A stretch of 64,000 nucleotides of DNA from the sequence record PX645697.1; one strand, written 5' to 3'. The notes under the pieces are model-generated. The model ran no database searches and was not told the origin of the DNA. It saw nothing but the letters and a program-made list of their open reading frames with translations. A program made the translations under genes and the position numbers. This document shows, piece by piece, positions 2,971 to 63,381 of the stretch; the stretch's first letter is position 1; each line of letters opens with the position of its first letter. This DNA is from a phage.

Positions 2971-5900
2971 ATGGCGCTGTATCCAATAAAGTCACTAGGT
3001 GCTGTAGGCGTTATCGCTGATCAGGCTCCGACAGACTTAGCTCCTAATGCTTTCACTAATGCTATAAATGCTCGATTTGTTGAGCAGAGAGTATTTAAGA
3101 CGGGGGGCAATGCCCCTCTTTCTTATGTAGATGAAGACAAGGATTTAACCCCTCTGTCTTTCGTTTCTATGCCTTTCGATTATTATAGCGCAGGTAATAG
3201 CTTTCTTGTTGTAGGTACAGATAAGAAGTTATATAAACTGACAGATGAAAGCTTGACTGATATTAGCCGTAAGGTTGCTACAGTCACTAAGAAGGCTTCT
3301 GCCTCAATTAAGATTTATCCAGTTGTTTCTCAGATCGTTCCTAAAGAATCAACTATCTCAATGAACTTCAATCAGACCAAGAATCTAGAGGTTTCTCTTC
3401 TTCCTGCTGATGCTAACAATACTGATCTTATTTGGGAGGTTAGTAATTCAACCTATGGGAGTGTTACAGTAGACCCTAGTGACTCTAAGCTTGCTACTCT
3501 AACATCTTTTGAGAAAGAGGGTAATCTTGTAGTAACTATTTCTACTGCTGATGATTCTGTAGTGGCTCAGATTGCTGTTAACATTATAGATGGCGATTCA
3601 GGCATCTTCTTGAGTCAAGATACTGTTACTATCCGTAAAGGAGGGACTACTACTCTCACGGCTGTTACTGGCAAAACTCCTGTAACTTGGTCCAGCAATA
3701 ACGCTTCTATTGTATCCGTAACCCCTAACTCCAACTCTCTAACCGCTGTCATTACAGCGAATGGAGAAGGTAATGTAACAATCACTGCTGATAACGGGAC
3801 TAAGACTGCTTCTTGTGAGATTGTTTCTATCCCTCAGATTGATAGTATCTCTTTAAGCCAGTCAGATGTTACTGTGAGCAGAGGTTCTCAGTATATCTTA
3901 ACTGCTACCCTTTCTCCTGCTAACGCCCCTAATCAAAATATTACTTGGACCTCTTCTAACCCAAATATTGCAACAGTATCAGGGACTAGCACACAAGGGA
4001 CGATCAACGCTCTACTTGCTGGTTTTACTGAGATTACAGCTACCACTGAAGAAGGTAATAGAGTTGCTGTCTGTACTGTACGTGTGGATTTAGCTGGAAG
4101 GACAATGAGAACAAGTGCTATGGCATTTGCCGCTCCTGTGTCAGAGTCAGTAGAAACTCAAGAGGAAGAAGTAGTAACTCCTACTGAAAGTGAAGAGACG
4201 GTTTATTTTGCTGAGCCTACATCTGGTATAGATACGTCGGGGATGTATGAAGGTAACAACTTCTATGACTATTCTAACGTGAATGACATTGAAGGTTTTG
4301 CAAGAGCTTCTTTACTCGCAACTCCTTTGTCATCTGTAACCTTAGATATTGTCAGCGCTTCTCTTGATGTTGGTGAAGAGATTGTCATTACAGCCACAGC
4401 TTCTCCAGAGGGTGAGTACTCTTATCAGTGGTCTGTTGATAAAACTGGTTATGTTTCTACAACCTCAGTTACTGGTAAATCTATCAAACTGGTTGCTCTT
4501 CGTAAAGGGGAGATTAACGTAACCTGTACTGTCAGTCAGATGACTCAGAAAGATTACGATGCTTTTGATGACTATCCTTGGTATCACGCTGTTATCTCTA
4601 ACTGTGCAGTTGCTACAACTCACTATGAAACCCCTCAGGTAAAAGAATTCGAATCAGAATACTTTGTAGATCTTCCGGGATGGGGTGAGCAAACAGTTGT
4701 GGATAATGATGGAAACCCTTCAGTCAAGAAGTTTAACTGGAAATGTGAGAGAGTAAGATCTTTTAACAACCGTCTTTTTGCTCTGAATATGAGAGAGGCT
4801 AATGCTTCTGGTGTTACTACTAACTACCCGCTTCGTCTTCGTTGGTCTAACTTTGCCAATGAGAATAAGGCTCCTACACTGTGGGATGACTTTGCCTATG
4901 ATCGAGTTGTGTCTTCGGACTTAGCTTCTAACATCGTAGGGCAGACTCAGGCTCTAGAGAATGGGTATGCTGGTTACATTGACTTAGCAGATTCTAATGG
5001 TAGCTTGATTGATATCCTACCTCTTAAAGACTACTTGTTTGTTTATACAGAGTTTGAAACGTATATTGGTTCTCCGACTAATAACACATACCAACCTCTG
5101 ATGTTCAAGAAGCTCTTTAACGACTCTGGTATCCTTGCTCCTGAGTGTGTGGTTGAAGTAGAAGGTAGTCACTTCGTAGTTACTCAGAACGATGTAATCT
5201 TACACAACGGTGCAACCAAGAAGTCAATTGCATCTAACCGTGTCAAGAACATGCTAATTAACGAGGTGTGCCTGGTTAACCCTCTAGCAACTCGAGTACA
5301 CTTGCATCAGGATAAGAAAGAAGTTTGGGTTCTGTACGTAGGTCCGGGAGAACCAAAAGAAAGCTTCGCTTGTACTAAAGCTGCTGTATGGAATTATGAG
5401 TTTGATACTTGGTCTTTCCGTACTATCCCATATGCTCAGTGTATCGGCCTAGTTGATCCTCCTGTTTTAGAGAGAGGTCCAATCTGGTCTGACTTCCAAG
5501 AGATCACTTGGGATGACCCATCTATTAAAGAACTTGTTTGGAGAAAGGATGCAACAAACTTCAGACAGAGGGTTACGATAGTAGGTTCGTTCTTGAGGGG
5601 ATTCTATCAGGTGGATGTAGGTGCTCTTGACTATTTCTATGACAGGCTAAACGATGTTGTTATAGAGAAACCTCTGGAAATGAGGTTGGAGAGGACTGGT
5701 ATAGATTTTGATAATGTGACGAATGAGTGGAATCAGAAGCATATTAACAGATTCCGTCCTCAGACAACTGGCTCAGGTACTTATATCTTTGAAGCTGGAG
5801 GTAGTCAATTCTCAAATGAATATGGACACCCACACACATCTAAGACTTATACAATTGGTGTTGACAGGCATGTCTCGGTGAGACTGAACCATCCATACCT

Positions 5901-21042: not shown

Positions 21043-21302
21043 TATTCTATTCCACGCTCTTTAAGAGCTTCTAACAATCCGTTGTGATTAGCAGCACATT
21101 CTGTGTACTGGTCCTGATACCACTCCAACGTAGTGGCTAGTGCTTTTCCTTGAGCACTCTCTAAAAGAGGTAGGTCAACCCTACATTCAGCTTTTAGGTT
21201 TGTTGGTAAGGGCATTGATTGCCTGCTGTTGTCGCTCGTTGAACAAGCTGACATACTCATCACTAGCGCAGACATTATAAAAAACTGGTTTAGTTTTCTC
21301 AT
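21042..21302 (-). CDS. o-spanin-like lipoprotein candidate, embedded/overlapping
   Basis: Internal ATG 21302; MRKLNQFFIMSALVMSMSAC lipoprotein-type signal with Cys; overlaps the 3' part of the next gene in another frame. Confidence 0.3.
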
Positions 21303-53543: not shown

Positions 53544-53642
53544 CTCTCATTCAATTTGGCGCACCGTGGAGGATTCTAACCTCCAACCAATTTCTTAGAA
53601 GGAAACTGCTCTATACAATTGAGCTAACGGCGCTGGATTTGT

Positions 53643-57262: not shown

Positions 57263-57706
57263 CTACTTTACCCTTGCTTCTTTGATGGGGTCAATGTATT
57301 TTTCAACGCCCCACTTGTGTTTACTGTCAGCGTAGAAAACATCAGGTGCGCACTGACTAGTCTTAGGGAAAGCCTGCGGGTCTTTCGTGCTACCCTTAGA
57401 CTTCTGTTTACCTCGGGTGCGACCATTACAGAAGATTTCTAACTTCTTCTCCTCTTCTGTTTTAGCTCCCCCGCTCTTTAACAAAGAACGTTTATGATCG
57501 GCTAACAATAACGCATCAGCACGATGAACGCGATGGCCTACACGTTTTGCCACACTAGAAGGGATATAGGATTCAGCTTCAGCCCTTGCAGCACGACGTT
57601 TTAAACTGCGCTTACTAATGTAATTGGTTGCCTTCGGCTTCTCTTTCTCCAGTTCAGAGATAGAAAAACAACGCCCGCCCTTCATGCTGATTTTAGATTT
57701 AGTCAC
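57263..57706 (-). CDS. basic hypothetical protein
   Basis: Track ORF, K/R-rich. Confidence 0.35.
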   Translation of the reverse strand: MTKSKISMKGGRCFSISELEKEKPKATNYISKRSLKRRAARAEAESYIPSSVAKRVGHRVHRADALLLADHKRSLLKSGGAKTEEEKKLEIFCNGRTRGKQKSKGSTKDPQAFPKTSQCAPDVFYADSKHKWGVEKYIDPIKEARVK

Positions 57707-57985: not shown

Positions 57986-58206
57986 AATGCTTGATACCTT
58001 TGAATGTGTTCGATACGGGTGGATTGAGCAAATGACGCTTTAACAGCCATTTTCCTAACTTCTTCCTTACGTTGGTTGGCGTGTATAGTATCCCAATGGT
58101 TGTTATCACGTTGGCGCTGTAATATCTTACTACACTTGCGATGGTTTCCCGTGCTGCGATGTTTCTCACAAATAGGACACTTGCCAAAAGTATTACTGAA
58201 TATCAT
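57982..58206 (-). CDS. small zinc-finger protein
   Basis: CPICEKH...H..C pattern. Confidence 0.3.
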   Translation of the reverse strand: MIFSNTFGKCPICEKHRSTGNHRKCSKILQRQRDNNHWDTIHANQRKEEVRKMAVKASFAQSTRIEHIQRYQAL

Positions 58207-58430
58207 TTTCTCAATCCCAGCTTTCTTAAGATACGGCCTAACGTTGTTTCTTGCGTGATAATATAGCTTATCGCTTCACGTTCCAACGTTTCAATTTTCA
58301 TTGGTGACGGATACCATTCACCAGTAAGCACGCATTTACACTCAACGCCATACTTTTTAGATAGGCGGTAATGTTGACCGTTGACAAGATTCCGATAAAT
58401 CGTGGTATGCGTAATTAACATGATCGTCAC
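58203..58430 (-). CDS. hypothetical small protein
   Basis: Track ORF. Confidence 0.35.
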   Translation of the reverse strand: MTIMLITHTTIYRNLVNGQHYRLSKKYGVECKCVLTGEWYPSPMKIETLEREAISYIITQETTLGRILRKLGLRK

Positions 58431-58532
58431 CTTTGATTATATTCTTTGATTAATGCACTGAATCAATGCACTGATAAAAGAAAAGGCGCTACCCGTTAAG
58501 ATAGCGCCTCATGTTTATTATAATCGTATTAC

Positions 58533-59432
58533 TTATGCCGCCTGACGTGCCGCCATAATCTCAGCCGCTTTACGCAATACTTCTTCCTCTTCTTCTTTCG
58601 CAGCTTGTTCGGTACGGGTAGCAACCGTTGAAGAGATACGACCGCGCAGGTTGTCTAACTTCTCCTGCATTTTGGCAATAGTTGATTCCATTTCATCAGC
58701 GTACGAATCCAGTGATTCCAACTCCTTGCTCGATGCGTTCATCAAGTAGTCATCAGAGATCGCTACCGTTGAAGCCGTGACCTTCTTGATGAGTGAATCA
58801 AAGGACTTTTTAACCTTCCCAACTTCTTCACTCAGGGCGATAGTGTTATCGCTAGTTGCGCCGTTGCGCTCATCAGCCAGTAATTTGGCTTCAATACGGA
58901 TTGCATTCAAGCGTTCAACTAAAGCGTAAATATCCTGATTAAAATCTTCCTTGTTTTTCGCCGGGATTTGCAGGTGTGCCGCTACGTTGTCATTGCAACC
59001 TTTGAAGAAGTTAGGGTTATCGACTTCAATTTCACGACCTAAAGCAAAGTTTTCGAAAGCGTTTGACCAGCGAGCGCGGTTTTGTTCCATTTTGGCCTTA
59101 ATTTGCGCTTCTTTCGCATCTTCTTTCGCTTTCGCTTCACCTTCCAGATTAATCCACTTTTTACGACCGTTTGCCGCCTCGGTGTTAAACTTGATAGGAG
59201 TCAGGAAAGTAATTGCAGTGGCGATCACATCCATATCGCGGAAACGTTCGGTTAACAGAAAATCGACCGCCGCTTGCAATACGTCCAGCTTTTTACCGTT
59301 ACTGCGGAAGTGCTGCAAGTGCCCTAACAGAAAATTAGAAACATCTTGCTTAATCGCTGCGTTATTGCTACGAATGTTGTTAGCCAGTGCGTTAAAACCA
59401 GATTCTTTTACCAGATTAAAAACTTTAGCCAT
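58533..59432 (-). CDS. hypothetical coiled-coil protein
   Basis: Track ORF 58533..59441 trimmed to ATG 59432 (AAAGGTG upstream; track start GTG is inside the SD). Confidence 0.4.
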   Translation of the reverse strand: MAKVFNLVKESGFNALANNIRSNNAAIKQDVSNFLLGHLQHFRSNGKKLDVLQAAVDFLLTERFRDMDVIATAITFLTPIKFNTEAANGRKKWINLEGEAKAKEDAKEAQIKAKMEQNRARWSNAFENFALGREIEVDNPNFFKGCNDNVAAHLQIPAKNKEDFNQDIYALVERLNAIRIEAKLLADERNGATSDNTIALSEEVGKVKKSFDSLIKKVTASTVAISDDYLMNASSKELESLDSYADEMESTIAKMQEKLDNLRGRISSTVATRTEQAAKEEEEEVLRKAAEIMAARQAA

Positions 59433-60355
59433 GATATTCACCTTTCAATTGTAAGGGCACTATGCCCCGCTCTCTATGAGCTTTTTAAGTCACTATTAAC
59501 TTAACTATAACCACTCGTTGTTAAGTAGTTATAGGTAAGCAGGGCGGTCTTATCAGGAGTTAACCTTGCCGCCCCCTTATCCGTGATGTTTCATCTGGTA
59601 TCTTTAATTAGTCGCTATAAACGAAGCCGACCTGATAGCGATGATCAATCATCACAATAAGGCTATGCGTCCGACTCTATTTAATCACATTGCTGTAACC
59701 GTCGGCAATACCGTCTACTTTGTTTTCGCTCCCGCTTATCCTTTGTGCCAACTCCTAACCGCTAACCATCGCCCACTACGGGAGGTTATTGCGGAAAGAG
59801 ATCATTGACCGCCTAATATTCCGGCGTTTTATATCTTTCGGCGGGTTTACTACATAACCCGACTATGTACTTCCGTCATAAGACGAATCTCAAGCCGTTC
59901 ACATCGTAAACGTTCGCATTAAACCTTATTGTTAAATAGCAATTTGCCACTTTTTAACCACTCCCCGCCGCTCTCAATTGAACGTTAATTCGTCGGGATT
60001 GCCTACCCTGATTAACTTCTTTCACTGTAGCACCGTGTTAGCGATGGCCGCCGCTACCCTTTAACCGTGGGCGATTAGTTTAAGCCGTTGCGTGTACTCA
60101 ATGAATCCGTTTATCAGTGGTGACGTTTCCAGTTAAGGGATTGTAAGACTGTTTACCCTGATAGTTTAGGGGTCTTACACCGTTTTATCTGGTATGCTTT
60201 CCGATGGTTATTATCTTCCAGCATATGCAACCGATATAGGAGAATGTTTAAATTATTAAAGAGCGGTAAATCTATCAACGTGCTTTCTCACGTTATGCAA
60301 CTGTTAGCCGTTGTTACGCTTTTCACTAAAGCGGTGATTTGCTCAAGTGATGCTC

Positions 60356-60384
60356 ATTATGGACCATGATGTTTTCGCTGTCAA
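60356..60384 (-). promoter_or_regulatory. sigma70-type promoter (TTGACA-N17-CATAAT) with A-rich upstream region
   Basis: Read on minus strand: -35 at 60384-60379, -10 at 60361-60356. Confidence 0.5.
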
Positions 60385-60807
60385 TCGCTTTTTAATCTTT
60401 TTCGTCGTTCCCGCTATTGGGAGGATATATCAATCAGCTTTATTTGATTGAAGATTAAGCGATAAGGCTTAACTCATGATTCACATTGTTAAAGAGCGTT
60501 TTTAGCCTTTTATAGTGTCTGCTAGTCACTGCGTCATTGAAGGCTTACTTATTCATTAACGGGGCGCCTAATCCCGAACTACTCGCTGCACTATGTGCCA
60601 CCTTTCCCGCGATACGTTGATTTGGGAACTAGTTAGCGATGTTTTGCTAACTTGTGGTTAGTATGAACTACTTTAACCACGTTTGCAATCTCTTTTTTAT
60701 CATCTTCTTTTATTTTCTTTTCCCTTATCTCGCTTGAATCTATGCGAAAGGGCAAGATGATAAGTTTTTAAAGAGCGGGATTTTTTAAGTCATCGCTGAC
60801 TATGCTC

Positions 60808-60836
60808 ACTATATATCAGGCTGTTTTCGGTGTCAA
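60808..60836 (-). promoter_or_regulatory. sigma70-type promoter (TTGACA-N17-TATAGT) with A-rich upstream region
   Basis: Read on minus strand: -35 at 60836-60831, -10 at 60813-60808. Confidence 0.55.
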
Positions 60837-61098
60837 TACTCTTTTAAGAATATTTTTCACTTTCTAGCCTGATTTTTAAAGAGCGGTTGAAGTCTCTCTC
60901 TTCACGGGGTATTGCGTAGTGCCCAACGTTCTCTGTTACCGCGCTATAGGTAGTAACTTAGTATCCGACAATCAGACCTTCTTCACTCGGTGAAGCCCGG
61001 CCTCTCAATTTACTGTTAGTGAGGCGGTTACAGTGTACCTGCTACCGATTCCGTGGTGGCGTCTTACTGCTTGTTGCTTACTGCTTACTACGGGATTT

Positions 61099-61126
61099 AT
61101 ATTAATATATAGGAAAATCTTGTCAA
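61099..61126 (-). promoter_or_regulatory. sigma70-type promoter candidate (TTGACA-N16-TAATAT)
   Basis: Read on minus strand: -35 at 61126-61121; -10 less certain. Confidence 0.4.
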
Positions 61127-61336
61127 TACCTTTTTTTCAAATTATTTTATATCTCACTGTTTTATAAAGGAATTTATTTTAGGGAGGATAGGAACTACAA
61201 AGAAATCAGGAGGTAAAGGAACGGGTGCGCGTGATACATCATAGGAAACGGCTTGTAAATCGATATTTAACGGCCTAAAACGCATCGTAGCGAGCTAAAA
61301 GGGAGTAAGGAATACAATCACCTTAGAAAACAGAAA

Positions 61337-61353
61337 AGCGCCATAGCGGCGCT
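61337..61353 (-). terminator. rho-independent terminator
   Basis: Minus-strand AGCGCC-gcuau-GGCGCU followed by UUUUCUGUUUUC. Confidence 0.5.
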
Positions 61354-61429
61354 TATAGGAAGGATTAGAGCATCAGATAGATTATGACCATAGGCATGAC
61401 TACGGCACAATACAGTAGAAAGATTAAGC

Positions 61430-61807
61430 CTATGGATTTACACATTGACCATTACCGGACTCAATTTCATTCATGGACTCATCAAAGAGCGTCAACGATG
61501 AGCGCATCAAGTGATCTATCGTGATTTGTTTACCGGTAGTTTCATTTACCAGCAGAATAGCTTTGTTATCTGATTGCACATGATCAAAATCATTTACATG
61601 CAAAATAATAACTTTAGGTGACTGTTTACCAGTTTCATAGTTTTCTATCAAATAGGTGCACTGTAAACCGTCAACCGTAGCAGGGGAGAATATTGCAGCC
61701 TTAACACTACCCATAGACGATAGGAGAACGCCCAGCAGGAGAACGACAAGGAAGAAGCCCACAAATACTTTTACTACAAATTTGATAATACCCATGATAA
61801 TAATCAC
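61430..61807 (-). CDS. membrane-anchored hypothetical protein
   Basis: N-terminal hydrophobic segment FVVKVFVGFFLVVLLLGVLLS. Confidence 0.4.
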   Translation of the reverse strand: MIIIMGIIKFVVKVFVGFFLVVLLLGVLLSSMGSVKAAIFSPATVDGLQCTYLIENYETGKQSPKVIILHVNDFDHVQSDNKAILLVNETTGKQITIDHLMRSSLTLFDESMNEIESGNGQCVNP

Positions 61808-61899
61808 CTATAGTTAGAGAATATAAGAATAAAGCATATCAGCGACGAATAACGCCACTGTAACGACGAACAAGCACCGCCAAAAACAATCATGAATCA

Positions 61900-62166
61900 T
61901 TAGTTGCCTTTACCTTTAAATAATGCTACTCTAAGCAGTTCGATCTCTTCCAGTGAAAGAAGAATCCGACGTTGCGCCAAATACTGACCAGCTGCGACGG
62001 AATCCATGATCAAAGCAACAGCGGGAAAACTCACCGTCTTAATACTATCGCCGACAATAAACAAGATTAAGCACTTGTCAGAGCTGTCAGTGTATGAGAA
62101 ATCAATCTCACCATAATTATGGGTTGGAATAGTGAAGCTGTACTCTTTAGCCATTTTTGTCACCAT
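61900..62166 (-). CDS. hypothetical protein
   Basis: Track ORF. Confidence 0.35.
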   Translation of the reverse strand: MVTKMAKEYSFTIPTHNYGEIDFSYTDSSDKCLILFIVGDSIKTVSFPAVALIMDSVAAGQYLAQRRILLSLEEIELLRVALFKGKGN

Positions 62167-62411
62167 TTTGGCAAATCAATATCAAGAAGACCAGCAAGCG
62201 ACAAATCGCCGTCAATATAGATCGACTTGAAATCATCACGGGTAATTTCAAAATTAGCAAAGGCTAACCAATCCTTAAGAGGCTGGAATTCCATCCTGCA
62301 AAAAGTGATAATAGGCAATGTTATCTGACCGTCCAAAGTGTTGAACATGATTTCAGAACGACCAACAAAACAAGAAAAACCGTTAGATAATTTAACTTCT
62401 TTAATAGCCAT
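62160..62411 (-). CDS. hypothetical protein
   Basis: Track ORF. Confidence 0.35.
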   Translation of the reverse strand: MAIKEVKLSNGFSCFVGRSEIMFNTLDGQITLPIITFCRMEFQPLKDWLAFANFEITRDDFKSIYIDGDLSLAGLLDIDLPKW

Positions 62412-62436
62412 TTTTACACTCCCAAAAATAAGTTAT

Positions 62437-63309
62437 TTACTTACTAGCCTTGATGCAGTTGGCTAGATTAACGTGAACGGTATAAACAGCGTTATCCGCA
62501 TTATTGTAAACGGTAGTGGCGATCATCGACTCATTAACCGGACCATAACTCACTAGATTCGTGACAGCTTTCGCATGGCTGTAACGTTGTACAGTGCCAT
62601 ACGTCACCATATCCGCATCGTTATCAGTACGCTTGAGAACTAGATCACTGTTAGGCTGATTGTCTAGTGTTTTGGTACTAACGACCAGACCATCACGGGA
62701 AACGTTACTGAATTTAACCTTTAAAACGACCTGATTGGTGTCACTATCAGCACCATTGCAAATCATCCAACCTTTATTGATGGAACTAGCGAAAACGTCA
62801 GCGGCATTAGTTGCGGGAGTAGGACTAGCGATAGCCTTGTCAGAAAGAGATGTGACCAGTGCACTAACACCAATCGCTGCAACCAGTGCATAACTTGCCA
62901 GATTAATAGACTTCATAATCTTACTTGCAACAGTAGGCTTGATTGGCTGTTTCTTGTTTTTCTTGTTCCATGCTTCAACCATGACAGACAAGCGGGATAA
63001 TTCAGCTTTCACATCGCGGCATGACTCAGGCCAATCCTTCTGATTCCAGCTATCTAAATTCGCCTGAATGTAGCAATTAATAGCGTCCTGCATATCGGTA
63101 AAACCGTTTTCTTTGAACGTGCTTTCATCTTCACACTGTAAAGCGTTCGCAGTAGAATTGATGATCAAGCAAGCCAGCATTACAGAGTTTTTGAATCCTC
63201 TACGTGCACTTTCGTTTTCCATCCACGCATCAGGACTACCAACGGTTAAGCCTAAAGAGGAAAGGCTTTCGTTTGCTTTGTTCAAGTGATTAATTGCTAC
63301 TTTAGACAT
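62437..63309 (-). CDS. bitopic membrane protein, first gene downstream of a near-consensus sigma70 promoter
   Basis: Central TM LASYALVAAIGVSALVTSL; promoter at 63353-63381. Confidence 0.4.
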   Translation of the reverse strand: MSKVAINHLNKANESLSSLGLTVGSPDAWMENESARRGFKNSVMLACLIINSTANALQCEDESTFKENGFTDMQDAINCYIQANLDSWNQKDWPESCRDVKAELSRLSVMVEAWNKKNKKQPIKPTVASKIMKSINLASYALVAAIGVSALVTSLSDKAIASPTPATNAADVFASSINKGWMICNGADSDTNQVVLKVKFSNVSRDGLVVSTKTLDNQPNSDLVLKRTDNDADMVTYGTVQRYSHAKAVTNLVSYGPVNESMIATTVYNNADNAVYTVHVNLANCIKASK

Positions 63310-63352: not shown

Positions 63353-63381
63353 AACTATATAATAAAGGAAAAGGCTGTCAA
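63353..63381 (-). promoter_or_regulatory. sigma70-type promoter (TTGACA-N17-TATAGT)
   Basis: Read on minus strand: -35 at 63381-63376, -10 at 63358-63353; 44 nt upstream of ATG 63309. Confidence 0.55.

Follow-up and report, generated by a model that had tools for sequence, protein, structure and literature searches.

A Probable rrn-like Early Leader in a phiEco32-like Phage: Promoters and boxA Signals Ahead of a Large Structured Non-coding RNA

Introduction

This study concerns a gene-free spacer in a phage genome (sequence record PX645697.1), of which one stretch of 64,000 nucleotides, hereafter the window, was analysed. The spacer lies between the homologues of phi32_125 and phi32_124 of phage phiEco32, and we consider it probable that it holds an early leader resembling that of the E. 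coli ribosomal RNA (rrn) operons, in which promoters and boxA antitermination signals drive a large structured non-coding RNA of a phiEco32-like phage. In the E. coli rrn leader, tandem strong sigma70 promoters with A-rich upstream tracts are followed by a hairpin and then a consensus boxA, and the product is long, highly structured and untranslated, with long-range helices; these features recur in the spacer. Unlike the rrn leader, the phage locus is built of serial promoter-boxA units with no boxC-like element seen, and its product is not rRNA and runs on into protein-coding early genes.

Phage T7 is likewise a lytic podophage that uses the host polymerase, three strong early promoters and a consensus boxA before its first early gene. 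A perfect boxA is found at positions 813-823 of T7, between promoter A3 and gene 0.3, and, as summarised in PMC3709561 (citing Savalia 2010), it is a functional anti-termination element whose mutation makes Gp2 dispensable. Since T7 has the same device behind its early promoters, the boxA part of the present locus is known in kind: its antitermination signals add one more case to those of T7 and the rrn operons. T7-like Kayfunaviruses even share one cassette of the locus (M1 with its boxA) at 97% identity. Unlike the spacer, with its four boxA copies and a covarying RNA of ~800 nt, T7 has a single boxA followed by a leader of ~100 nt, and no homology of the large RNA to T7 or Kayfunavirus leaders was detected by nhmmer. 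Furthermore, boxA protects long untranslated CRISPR transcripts from Rho (PMC7665894), and in both CRISPR leaders and suhB it stands, as here, at the start of an unusually long, untranslated and Rho-exposed transcript (PMC7665894, PMC5725501), whereas the spacer belongs to an early unit of a phage, repeats boxA several times and yields one large folded RNA.

Where the RNA itself is concerned, GOLLD, ROOL and OLE are comparable in being several hundred nt long and multi-domain, with heavy covariation, conserved loops and junctions and no assigned function. GOLLD and ROOL occur in phage or prophage contexts. Unlike these, the RNA described here has no credible match in Rfam 15, is carried by a lytic podophage of E. 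coli, and forms the 5' leader of an early operon behind boxA. The put RNA of phage HK022, of ~70 nt with two stem-loops and Nus-independent, is also a structured RNA just downstream of early promoters, and like it the present RNA could act on its own polymerase; it is set apart, by description only, by the explicit boxA here and by the more than 10 times larger size of the RNA.

Gordonclarkvirinae, the subfamily in question, are common coliphages with broad host ranges that are used in therapy studies. Their molecular biology has been described as poorly studied, and unusually broad resistance to defence systems has been reported for them (BASEL preprint, 10.1101/2024.09.12.612763). Earlier work on SU10 and phiEco32 had noted three sigma70 promoters in this spacer (PMC4281155).

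Results and Discussion

Relatives of the Spacer

The phage of the window is a Kuravirus (phiEco32-like podophage, subfamily Gordonclarkvirinae). Positions 59300-61500 match 109 phage records, nearly all of them Escherichia Kuravirus and relatives and mostly at 80-95% identity (megablast), and a matching gap of ~1.8-2.3 kb is present in Kuravirus-, Suseptimavirus- and Nieuwekanaalvirus-type genomes. Scans of IMG/VR and metagenomes with a conserved 24-mer returned only Kuravirus-like contigs (87-94% identical); the useful divergence was found by following homologues of gp124, the product of the adjacent gene 124 (phi32_124 homologue), and not by these scans. Three contigs (96 kb, 87 kb and 22 kb) were reached in this way, with gp124 homologues that are 70% and 51% identical. 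In each of them a gene-free gap of 3.0-3.4 kb holds a promoter/boxA array, and nhmmer detects homology to the RNA in all three (E-values of 2e-108, 5e-51 and 6e-19).

A Large RNA Under Base-Pairing Selection

Between the last boxA and gene 124 lies an RNA body of ~800 nt (59454-60252, minus strand). RNAalifold on 13 genomes gave 252 base pairs, 77 of them with compensatory double changes. The pair cells are paired in 98.7% of cases, against 34-47% when the partners are slid by 1-3 columns, and the 77 compensatory pairs compare with 34.8 +/- 3.6 in shuffles (none of 500 reached 77) and with 9-11 in the slid controls. Because this structure was derived from the same 13 sequences, outside data were sought, and three distant phages left out of the structure prediction served as an out-of-sample set. 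When the structure was moved onto them, the key long-range helices were kept via multiple compensatory changes: the closing helix of domain I goes from TTTACATTCTCC/GGGGAGTGTAAA to TTTACCTTTGTT/AACAAAGGTAAG with 12 of 12 pairs kept, a second helix from TCTCCGC/GCGGAGG to CTTAGAC/GTCTAAG (7 of 7), and a 3' helix from CTATAACTAC/GTGGTTATAG to CAGAGTTAAC/GTTGATTCTG (10 of 10). With the distant phages included, 120 of 224 pairs show double changes, in comparison with 56.5 +/- 5.1 in shuffles and 35-50 in slid controls.

Many invariant G-U pairs, together with the z-scores of minimum free energy (MFE; -5.76 for the minus strand vs -2.23 for the plus strand), assign the RNA to the minus strand. The fold consists of two domains of ~300 nt, closed by long-range helices, and then a row of 3' hairpins. 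The paired GC-rich inverted repeats that a preliminary description of this DNA had listed (GTAAGAC...GTCTTAC and GGGCGG...CCGCCC) do exist, and both turned out to be covarying RNA helices (helices 12 and 38). That description had also named an abundantly transcribed structured RNA among its candidates and proposed Rfam, covariance and RNA-fold analysis as a check. The structured part is borne out by the extensive covariation, the z-score and the absence of a coding signature (see below), while transcription is what the promoters and the published phiEco32 and SU10 work lead us to infer. In Rfam 15 no credible family was found: a cmscan of 58000-63000 on both strands (E <= 1) gave only HIV-1_SL3 and 5.8S rRNA, at chance level and far below gathering scores, and ARAGORN found no tRNA or tmRNA in the region. 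A structured non-coding RNA is thus strongly supported by compensatory changes beyond the controls without a protein-coding signature, and the ~800-nt RNA appears to be an undescribed family of large structured RNAs. As the RNA body is under strong base-pairing selection, it should act as RNA.

The main alternative to a role as an RNA in its own right is that the large structure is only a cis-acting 5' untranslated region (UTR), which would control mRNA stability or translation of gene 124. We take this reading seriously, although we think it the less probable one, because the RNA is always immediately upstream of gene 124 and contiguous with its Shine-Dalgarno (SD) sequence, with no terminator or obvious processing site in between. 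Against it, the predicted pairing of the gene 124 SD with the flank of boxA4 (helix 6) is without covariation and breaks in TH34, and was dropped; sequence islands of the RNA are better conserved than gp124 itself in the relative with 51% identity; and, to our knowledge, ~800 nt in two domains closed over a long range far exceeds known cis-regulatory leaders.

Promoters and the boxA Array

The preliminary description had placed three near-consensus sigma70 promoters on the minus strand of the spacer, and these were found where it put them, with 10-11 of 12 consensus matches and conserved in relatives (P1-P3, Table 1). P1 is present in 13 of 13 mapped genomes, with a promoter-like site at the same relative position in two of the distant contigs (L036 and L038), and P2 is a paralogue of P1 within a 46-nt repeat (D1) that is 76% identical. 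Since the overall number of promoter-like sites across 58-64 kb is not above the shuffled expectation (16 vs 14.5), the case for P1-P3 rests on their quality, their conservation and the literature. The array is directly preceded by the intrinsic terminator at 61336-61354.

The same description had counted four copies of a repeat, which it called iterons. The count is correct: TTAAAGAGCG occurs four times on the plus strand of the spacer and nowhere else on the plus strand of the window, where 0.11 copies would be expected from the window density, and its 9-mer core is found 7 times in the window vs 0.94 expected. Read on the transcribed minus strand, the repeat becomes CGCTCTTTAA(A/C/T)AA, and all four copies, within 630 nt, are perfect matches to GYTCTTTAANA, the gamma-proteobacterial boxA consensus derived by Baniulyte et al. 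(PMC5725501). The whole window has 7 matches to this consensus vs 0.49 expected, 4 of them being those on one strand within 630 nt, and the 13-mer CGCTCTTTAACAA at 60486-60498 (boxA3) has no mismatch to the rrn-type boxA query pattern. To judge from the motif and its setting, the former iterons are boxA, the NusB/S10 antitermination signal, with NusB-S10 binding and Rho resistance as its presumed consequences; the preliminary description missed this.

The elements follow each other in the order terminator, P3, ~200 nt, boxA1, P2, boxA2, ~270 nt, boxA3, P1 and boxA4. Except for boxA3, each boxA comes about 25-210 nt after a predicted sigma70 promoter of the same strand. The alternation of promoters and boxA is kept in 13 genomes of three genera, which have 3-6 boxA per genome depending on the number of cassettes, and also in the three contigs with gp124 at 51-70% identity, which brings the total to 16 genomes and the range to 2-6. 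The core of boxA4 is invariant even in the most distant relatives (invariant columns G28-T41), while its flanks diverge. Hairpins stand 2-11 nt upstream of boxA1, boxA2 and boxA4, and those before boxA1 and boxA4 covary: the first occurs as GTGAAG..CTTCA, GTTGG..CCAAC and GAGGT..ACCTC, and the second as AACGTG/CACGTT, AGTGTG/CACACT and GAGGTG/CACCTC. The order of hairpin and then boxA is that of the rrn leader and not of the lambda nut site. The outer stem of a further hairpin after boxA2 (60699-60761), read from the sequence, is absent from the predicted MFE fold.

To hypothesize, host RNA polymerase would start leftward (on the minus strand) at P1-P3, strong sigma70 promoters with A-rich UP-like tracts, and the nascent transcript would bear a hairpin and then boxA (GCUCUUUAA-A). 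By analogy with the E. coli rrn operons, the T7 early leader and CRISPR leaders, boxA would recruit NusB-S10 and, with NusA, NusG and SuhB, give a fast, Rho-resistant polymerase, which could then cross ~1.7 kb of untranslated RNA and go on into gene 124 and later early genes. A polymerase tethered to boxA may also aid the folding of an RNA with long-range helices, and the rrn antitermination complex is described as an RNA-folding chaperone (PMC8632103). From the predicted start sites, early transcription must also pass the strong terminator after gene 124 (58483-58510). What the analysis shows are the sequence elements and their conservation, the lack of coding and the RNA structure; how strongly the unit is transcribed, the binding of Nus factors, the resistance to Rho and any role of the RNA body are inferred.

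A different use of the same signals can be imagined, namely that the boxA-hairpin units are lambda-type nut sites that need an N-like protein, or a sponge that titrates NusB, S10 and SuhB away from the host rrn operons as a form of host shut-off. The 2-6 boxA per genome on transcripts of very strong promoters, the hairpins that adjoin boxA copies and several nearby early genes of unassigned function would suit this proposal, which we find rather improbable, since the hairpin is located 5' of boxA as in rrn and not 3' of it as in lambda, where BoxA is followed by a spacer and then BoxB (PMC3177189). The simplest explanation for one boxA per promoter is that every transcript must carry a signal of its own. 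T7 manages with one boxA and no N protein, and no N-like protein turned up here, though no systematic search for one was made.

The preliminary description had also listed, among its candidates, a transcription-activated replication origin or a packaging repeat region; in this reading the TTAAAGAGCGG iterons would be bound by an initiator. Four near-identical 10-11-mers within 630 bp and near strong promoters are what such an origin could look like, a G-rich transcript would favour R-loops, and T7 and T4 do have transcription-activated origins. With the iterons recognised as strand-specific boxA RNA signals behind promoters, this candidate loses its main support, and we now think it very unlikely: the repeat is the exact boxA RNA consensus, always on the transcribed strand, its spacing is irregular (108, 279 and 233 nt), its copy number of 2-6 tracks the number of cassettes, and the covariation is of the RNA type, with many G-U pairs, which the opposite strand could present only as A-C mismatches. 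Iteron origins usually combine regularly spaced direct repeats, bound by protein as double-stranded DNA, with an AT-rich unwinding element and often DnaA boxes; no good DnaA box was seen by eye, a formal scan not having been made. The match in WFI101126, the closest RefSeq genome, covers 72277-74567 of 77307, i.e., the region is ~2.7-5.0 kb from the right genome end, and it is therefore unlikely to be a terminal packaging element; in phiEco32, terminal repeats are located at the ends of the genome.

Conservation Without Coding

The leader is as conserved as the gene that follows it, with a mean pairwise identity (average of 60-nt windows) of ~0.84 from P1 to gene 124 vs ~0.83 in gene 124. Substitutions by codon phase are 166/177/165 in the leader vs 82/50/298 in gene 124, and none of the leader's 188-nt chunks has a 3-nt substitution periodicity. 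It had been stated that no open reading frame (ORF) of 60 aa or more exists in 59442-61429, which holds (the longest has 55 aa, on the plus strand), and that minus-strand ORFs in 59442-60240 do not exceed 23 aa, which is nearly right, the maximum being 24 aa, with a 41-aa ORF starting with TTG (60278-60153) that straddles the upper limit. Of the minus-strand ORFs in this leader, a single tiny one is intact in most relatives, and ORFs of more than 25 aa are intact in at most 2 of 13 genomes.

Several small proteins (micro-ORFs) missed by gene callers could be proposed on the grounds that the EK5 and 101114UKE3 records have 7-9 hypothetical proteins in the spacer and that 10-11 of 13 genomes keep three ORFs of 21-25 aa unbroken; this is hardly credible, as no chunk of the leader shows the periodicity that gene 124 does, just 1-2 of 13 genomes retain the larger ORFs (41-55 aa), the variation is accounted for by paired compensatory changes, and intact tiny ORFs are expected at ~85% sequence identity. 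Decayed host-derived or junk DNA downstream of promoters, a further candidate of the preliminary description for which the lack of genes and the CpG content might speak (observed/expected of 1.24 vs 0.70 for the backbone), can be practically dismissed: blastn found no match of the region in 5,426 complete E. coli genomes, the region is conserved like the adjacent gene, is pervaded by compensatory changes, and is kept in phages with gp124 only 51-70% identical.

As for composition, the preliminary description was right about the higher CpG (1.24 in the leader, 59442-61130, vs 0.70 in the CpG-depleted window backbone), while the higher GC that it also saw is absent (0.420 in both region and window). 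The CpG contrast could come from coding constraints, from avoidance of restriction/modification sites or from the RNA helices. The at least nine copies of TAACC noted there are present (9 vs 2.6 expected), with an enrichment that is weak (p ~1e-3 before correction for ~700 5-mers). Once multiple testing is allowed for, the excess does not stand out, and some copies fall in paired and others in unpaired parts of the fold, so TAACC/GGUUA was rejected as a repeated binding motif; like the GC content, it had been overstated.

Weighing the Proposed rrn-like Leader

Several points weigh against an rrn-like, boxA-driven leader. After the boxA copies no boxC-like GU-rich element was seen by inspection, the sequence there being A/U-rich (e.g., AAUCAGGCUAGAAAG and UUUAAACAUUCUCC). 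The transcript has a base composition of A 0.32, C 0.19, G 0.25 and U 0.24, and being G-rich and C-poor it would be a poor Rho substrate in any case. Antitermination of the rrn type is known mainly to act against Rho, so that read-through of the terminator at 58483-58510 is left unexplained. The function of the RNA body is a guess, and gp124, with only weak, sub-threshold Pfam matches, a PHROG without annotation and an AlphaFold2 model of low confidence (pLDDT 53.8), gives no clue to it. In Salmonella phage 7-11, a distant phiEco32-like phage of another family, there is a long non-coding leader with no boxA, and nhmmer detected no homologue of the large RNA there. Finally, in the literature found on phiEco32-like phages, which did not include the primary papers Savalia 2008 and Pavlova 2012, the spacer itself is not discussed and no paper links boxA or a non-coding RNA to Kuravirus or phiEco32-like phages; those two papers may already mention boxA or this leader.

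With these points considered, we still regard the rrn-like early leader as the probable reading. Our working guess for the RNA body is an abundant immediate-early RNA, which might contribute to host takeover as a decoy or by binding proteins, or might work jointly with gp124. A bolder proposal, possible but rather doubtful as a whole, is that 59454-60252 represents a class of large ornate RNA not described before and, as far as we found, the first such RNA from a coliphage. An rrn-mimicking, Nus-antiterminated unit would produce it abundantly within minutes of the start of infection, and it would act in trans, either as an RNA-only assembly or as a ribonucleoprotein to which gp124 might belong, neutralising a host factor or a defence system. 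M1-like cassettes would be exchanged among unrelated podophages as mobile non-coding modules. If that were true, a trans-acting RNA could contribute to the broad defence resistance of Gordonclarkvirinae. A main early unit that copies the host's strategy for rRNA transcription would depend on host Nus factors in a way that can be put to the test. The structured RNA is large and deeply conserved and takes up ~1% of the genome. Large ornate RNAs are seldom found, and time and again new biochemistry has come out of them; an example from an E. coli phage would be unusually accessible to genetics.

Exchangeable Cassettes Upstream

Between P3 and P1, the genomes differ by cassettes of ~180 nt that are present or absent. 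M1, together with its hairpin and boxA1, is missing from every other Kuravirus record in the phage collection and was otherwise found in one metagenomic contig, yet it is 97% identical to the Kayfunaviruses (T7-like) Mt1B1_P3 and ASO2B and 84-88% identical to other Kayfunaviruses. In ASO2B an annotated sigma70 promoter immediately precedes it, and gp0.2 and ocr lie downstream. M1 is recognisable in Pectobacterium phage PPWS1 as well, where M1-like and M2-like segments adjoin, and M2 has partial matches in PPWS1 and in the distant contig L040. The near-identity of M1 with Kayfunaviruses and its absence from Kuravirus records suggest recent horizontal transfer between podophage families, and this points to M1 as a non-coding early-leader cassette that probably moved between phage families recently. 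From such comparisons, the upstream part of the locus is best described as modular, with "promoter + leader RNA + boxA" cassettes that are exchanged across phage families. Regulatory RNA modules, besides genes, would then share in phage mosaicism, with leader cassettes exchanged between phiEco32-like and T7-like phages. Internal paralogy of the cassettes M1, M2 and M3 was considered and rejected, as no similarity was seen by eye and M1 has no paralogue by nhmmer.

Table 1. Coordinates of the features of the leader and its surroundings in the window.
Feature	Position	Strand	Remarks
Intrinsic terminator closing the upstream operon (phi32_128 to phi32_125 homologues)	61336-61354	-	8-bp stem with 5 GC pairs, then T-run
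A-rich UP-element-like tract 5' of P3	about 61127-61150	-	
P3 promoter, TTGACA-16-TAATAT	61099-61126	-	10/12 consensus; kept in relatives; SU10 paper PMC4281155
Module M1, structured leader cassette of ~190 nt, possible pseudoknot	60889-61076	-	33 predicted pairs, 11 compensatory
boxB-like hairpin, 3 nt upstream of boxA1	60888-60905	-	pairing kept, sequence varies in Kayfunavirus copies
boxA1, GCTCTTTAAAA	60874-60884	-	~208 nt downstream of predicted P3 start
P2 promoter, TTGACA-17-TATAGT, A/T-rich tract upstream	60808-60836	-	11/12 consensus; kept in relatives
5' hairpin AGTCA-GCGA-TGACT before boxA2	60788-60801	-	
boxA2, GCTCTTTAAAA	60766-60776	-	~25 nt downstream of predicted P2 start
Conserved hairpin ATCATCTT...AAGATGAT after boxA2	60699-60761	-	read from sequence; segment common to most relatives
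Module M2, variable cassette of ~185 nt	60501-60698	-	in some Kuraviruses; ~40 nt instead in others
boxA3, GCTCTTTAACA	60487-60497	-	~300 nt downstream of P2, upstream of P1
P1 promoter, TTGACA-17-CATAAT, upstream A-tract AAAAAGATTAAAAAG	60356-60384	-	11/12 consensus
boxB-like hairpin, 11 nt upstream of boxA4	60276-60295	-	covaries; helix 5, 3 compensatory pairs
boxA4, GCTCTTTAATA	60254-60264	-	~85 nt downstream of predicted P1 start
RNA domain I, long-range closing helix	59953-60252	-	A2 columns 164-177 with 452-466
Short hairpin, then RNA domain II with nested covarying helices	59654-59952	-	closed by 487-514 with 738-804
3' hairpin series, including GGGCGG/CCGCCC and CTATAACTAC/GTGGTTATAG	59454-59653	-	fully re-coded yet paired in distant phages
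Gene 124 homologue with SD GAAAGGTGA (59438-59446)	58533-59446	-	299 aa; phrog_13018
Strong intrinsic terminator after gene 124	58483-58510	-	12-bp stem; also annotated in WFI101126

Annotation and Neighbouring Features

Gene 124 is always found directly downstream of the large RNA. Its start is most likely the ATG at 59432-59430, 5 nt downstream of the SD, in agreement with the 299-aa homologues, and the longest-ORF start, a GTG at 59441, is probably wrong. The spacer is without an annotated gene in WFI101126 and, likewise, in EK010 and EP335 (3 of 3 inspected Kuravirus-type annotations), while some other records annotate genes in it. Those in NJ01 (JX867715), EK5 (PQ805429) and 101114UKE3 (MZ234017) are evidently spurious (one record names a "cathepsin L-like cysteine proteinase A", the others list 7-9 hypothetical proteins), and the present analysis corrects such "hypothetical protein" annotations in several GenBank records. 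The phi32_125 homologue on the other side (125 aa, 61430-61807, minus strand) is labelled "terminase" in RefSeq and PHROGs (phrog_13168), which looks like annotation carry-over, because the label is without Pfam support and the gene is placed among early genes.

Three further boxA matches lie outside the leader, at 57472-57484 (plus strand), 21056-21066 (plus) and 5523-5533 (minus), compared with ~0.5 expected for the whole window; the first is a perfect CGCTCTTTAACAA, antisense to the minus-strand ORF 57263-57706. The rightmost operon, which ends at the terminator 61336-61354, has a strong promoter of its own (63354-63381, minus strand, TTGACA-16-TATAGT) without a boxA downstream, i.e., boxA follows the spacer promoters only.

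In phage 7-11, sigma70 promoters in a gene-free junction of ~2.8 kb point into an untranslated leader of 1-2 kb (L021 1-1750; L022 3365-4417), and the authors of that work suspected an undefined antitermination strategy (PMC8948821). The distant relatives of 87-96 kb share an extra block of 400-640 nt at 71-73% identity, gene-free by gene calls and upstream of the promoter/boxA arrays (about 1692-2301 in L036, 1516-2145 in L040 and 1914-2299 in L038), and nothing in the window corresponds to this block, which may represent a second RNA, a DNA element or a gene that was overlooked. The window has one tRNA gene, tRNA-Arg(UCU), at 53557-53633 (minus strand), and phiEco32, too, has a single tRNA-Arg.

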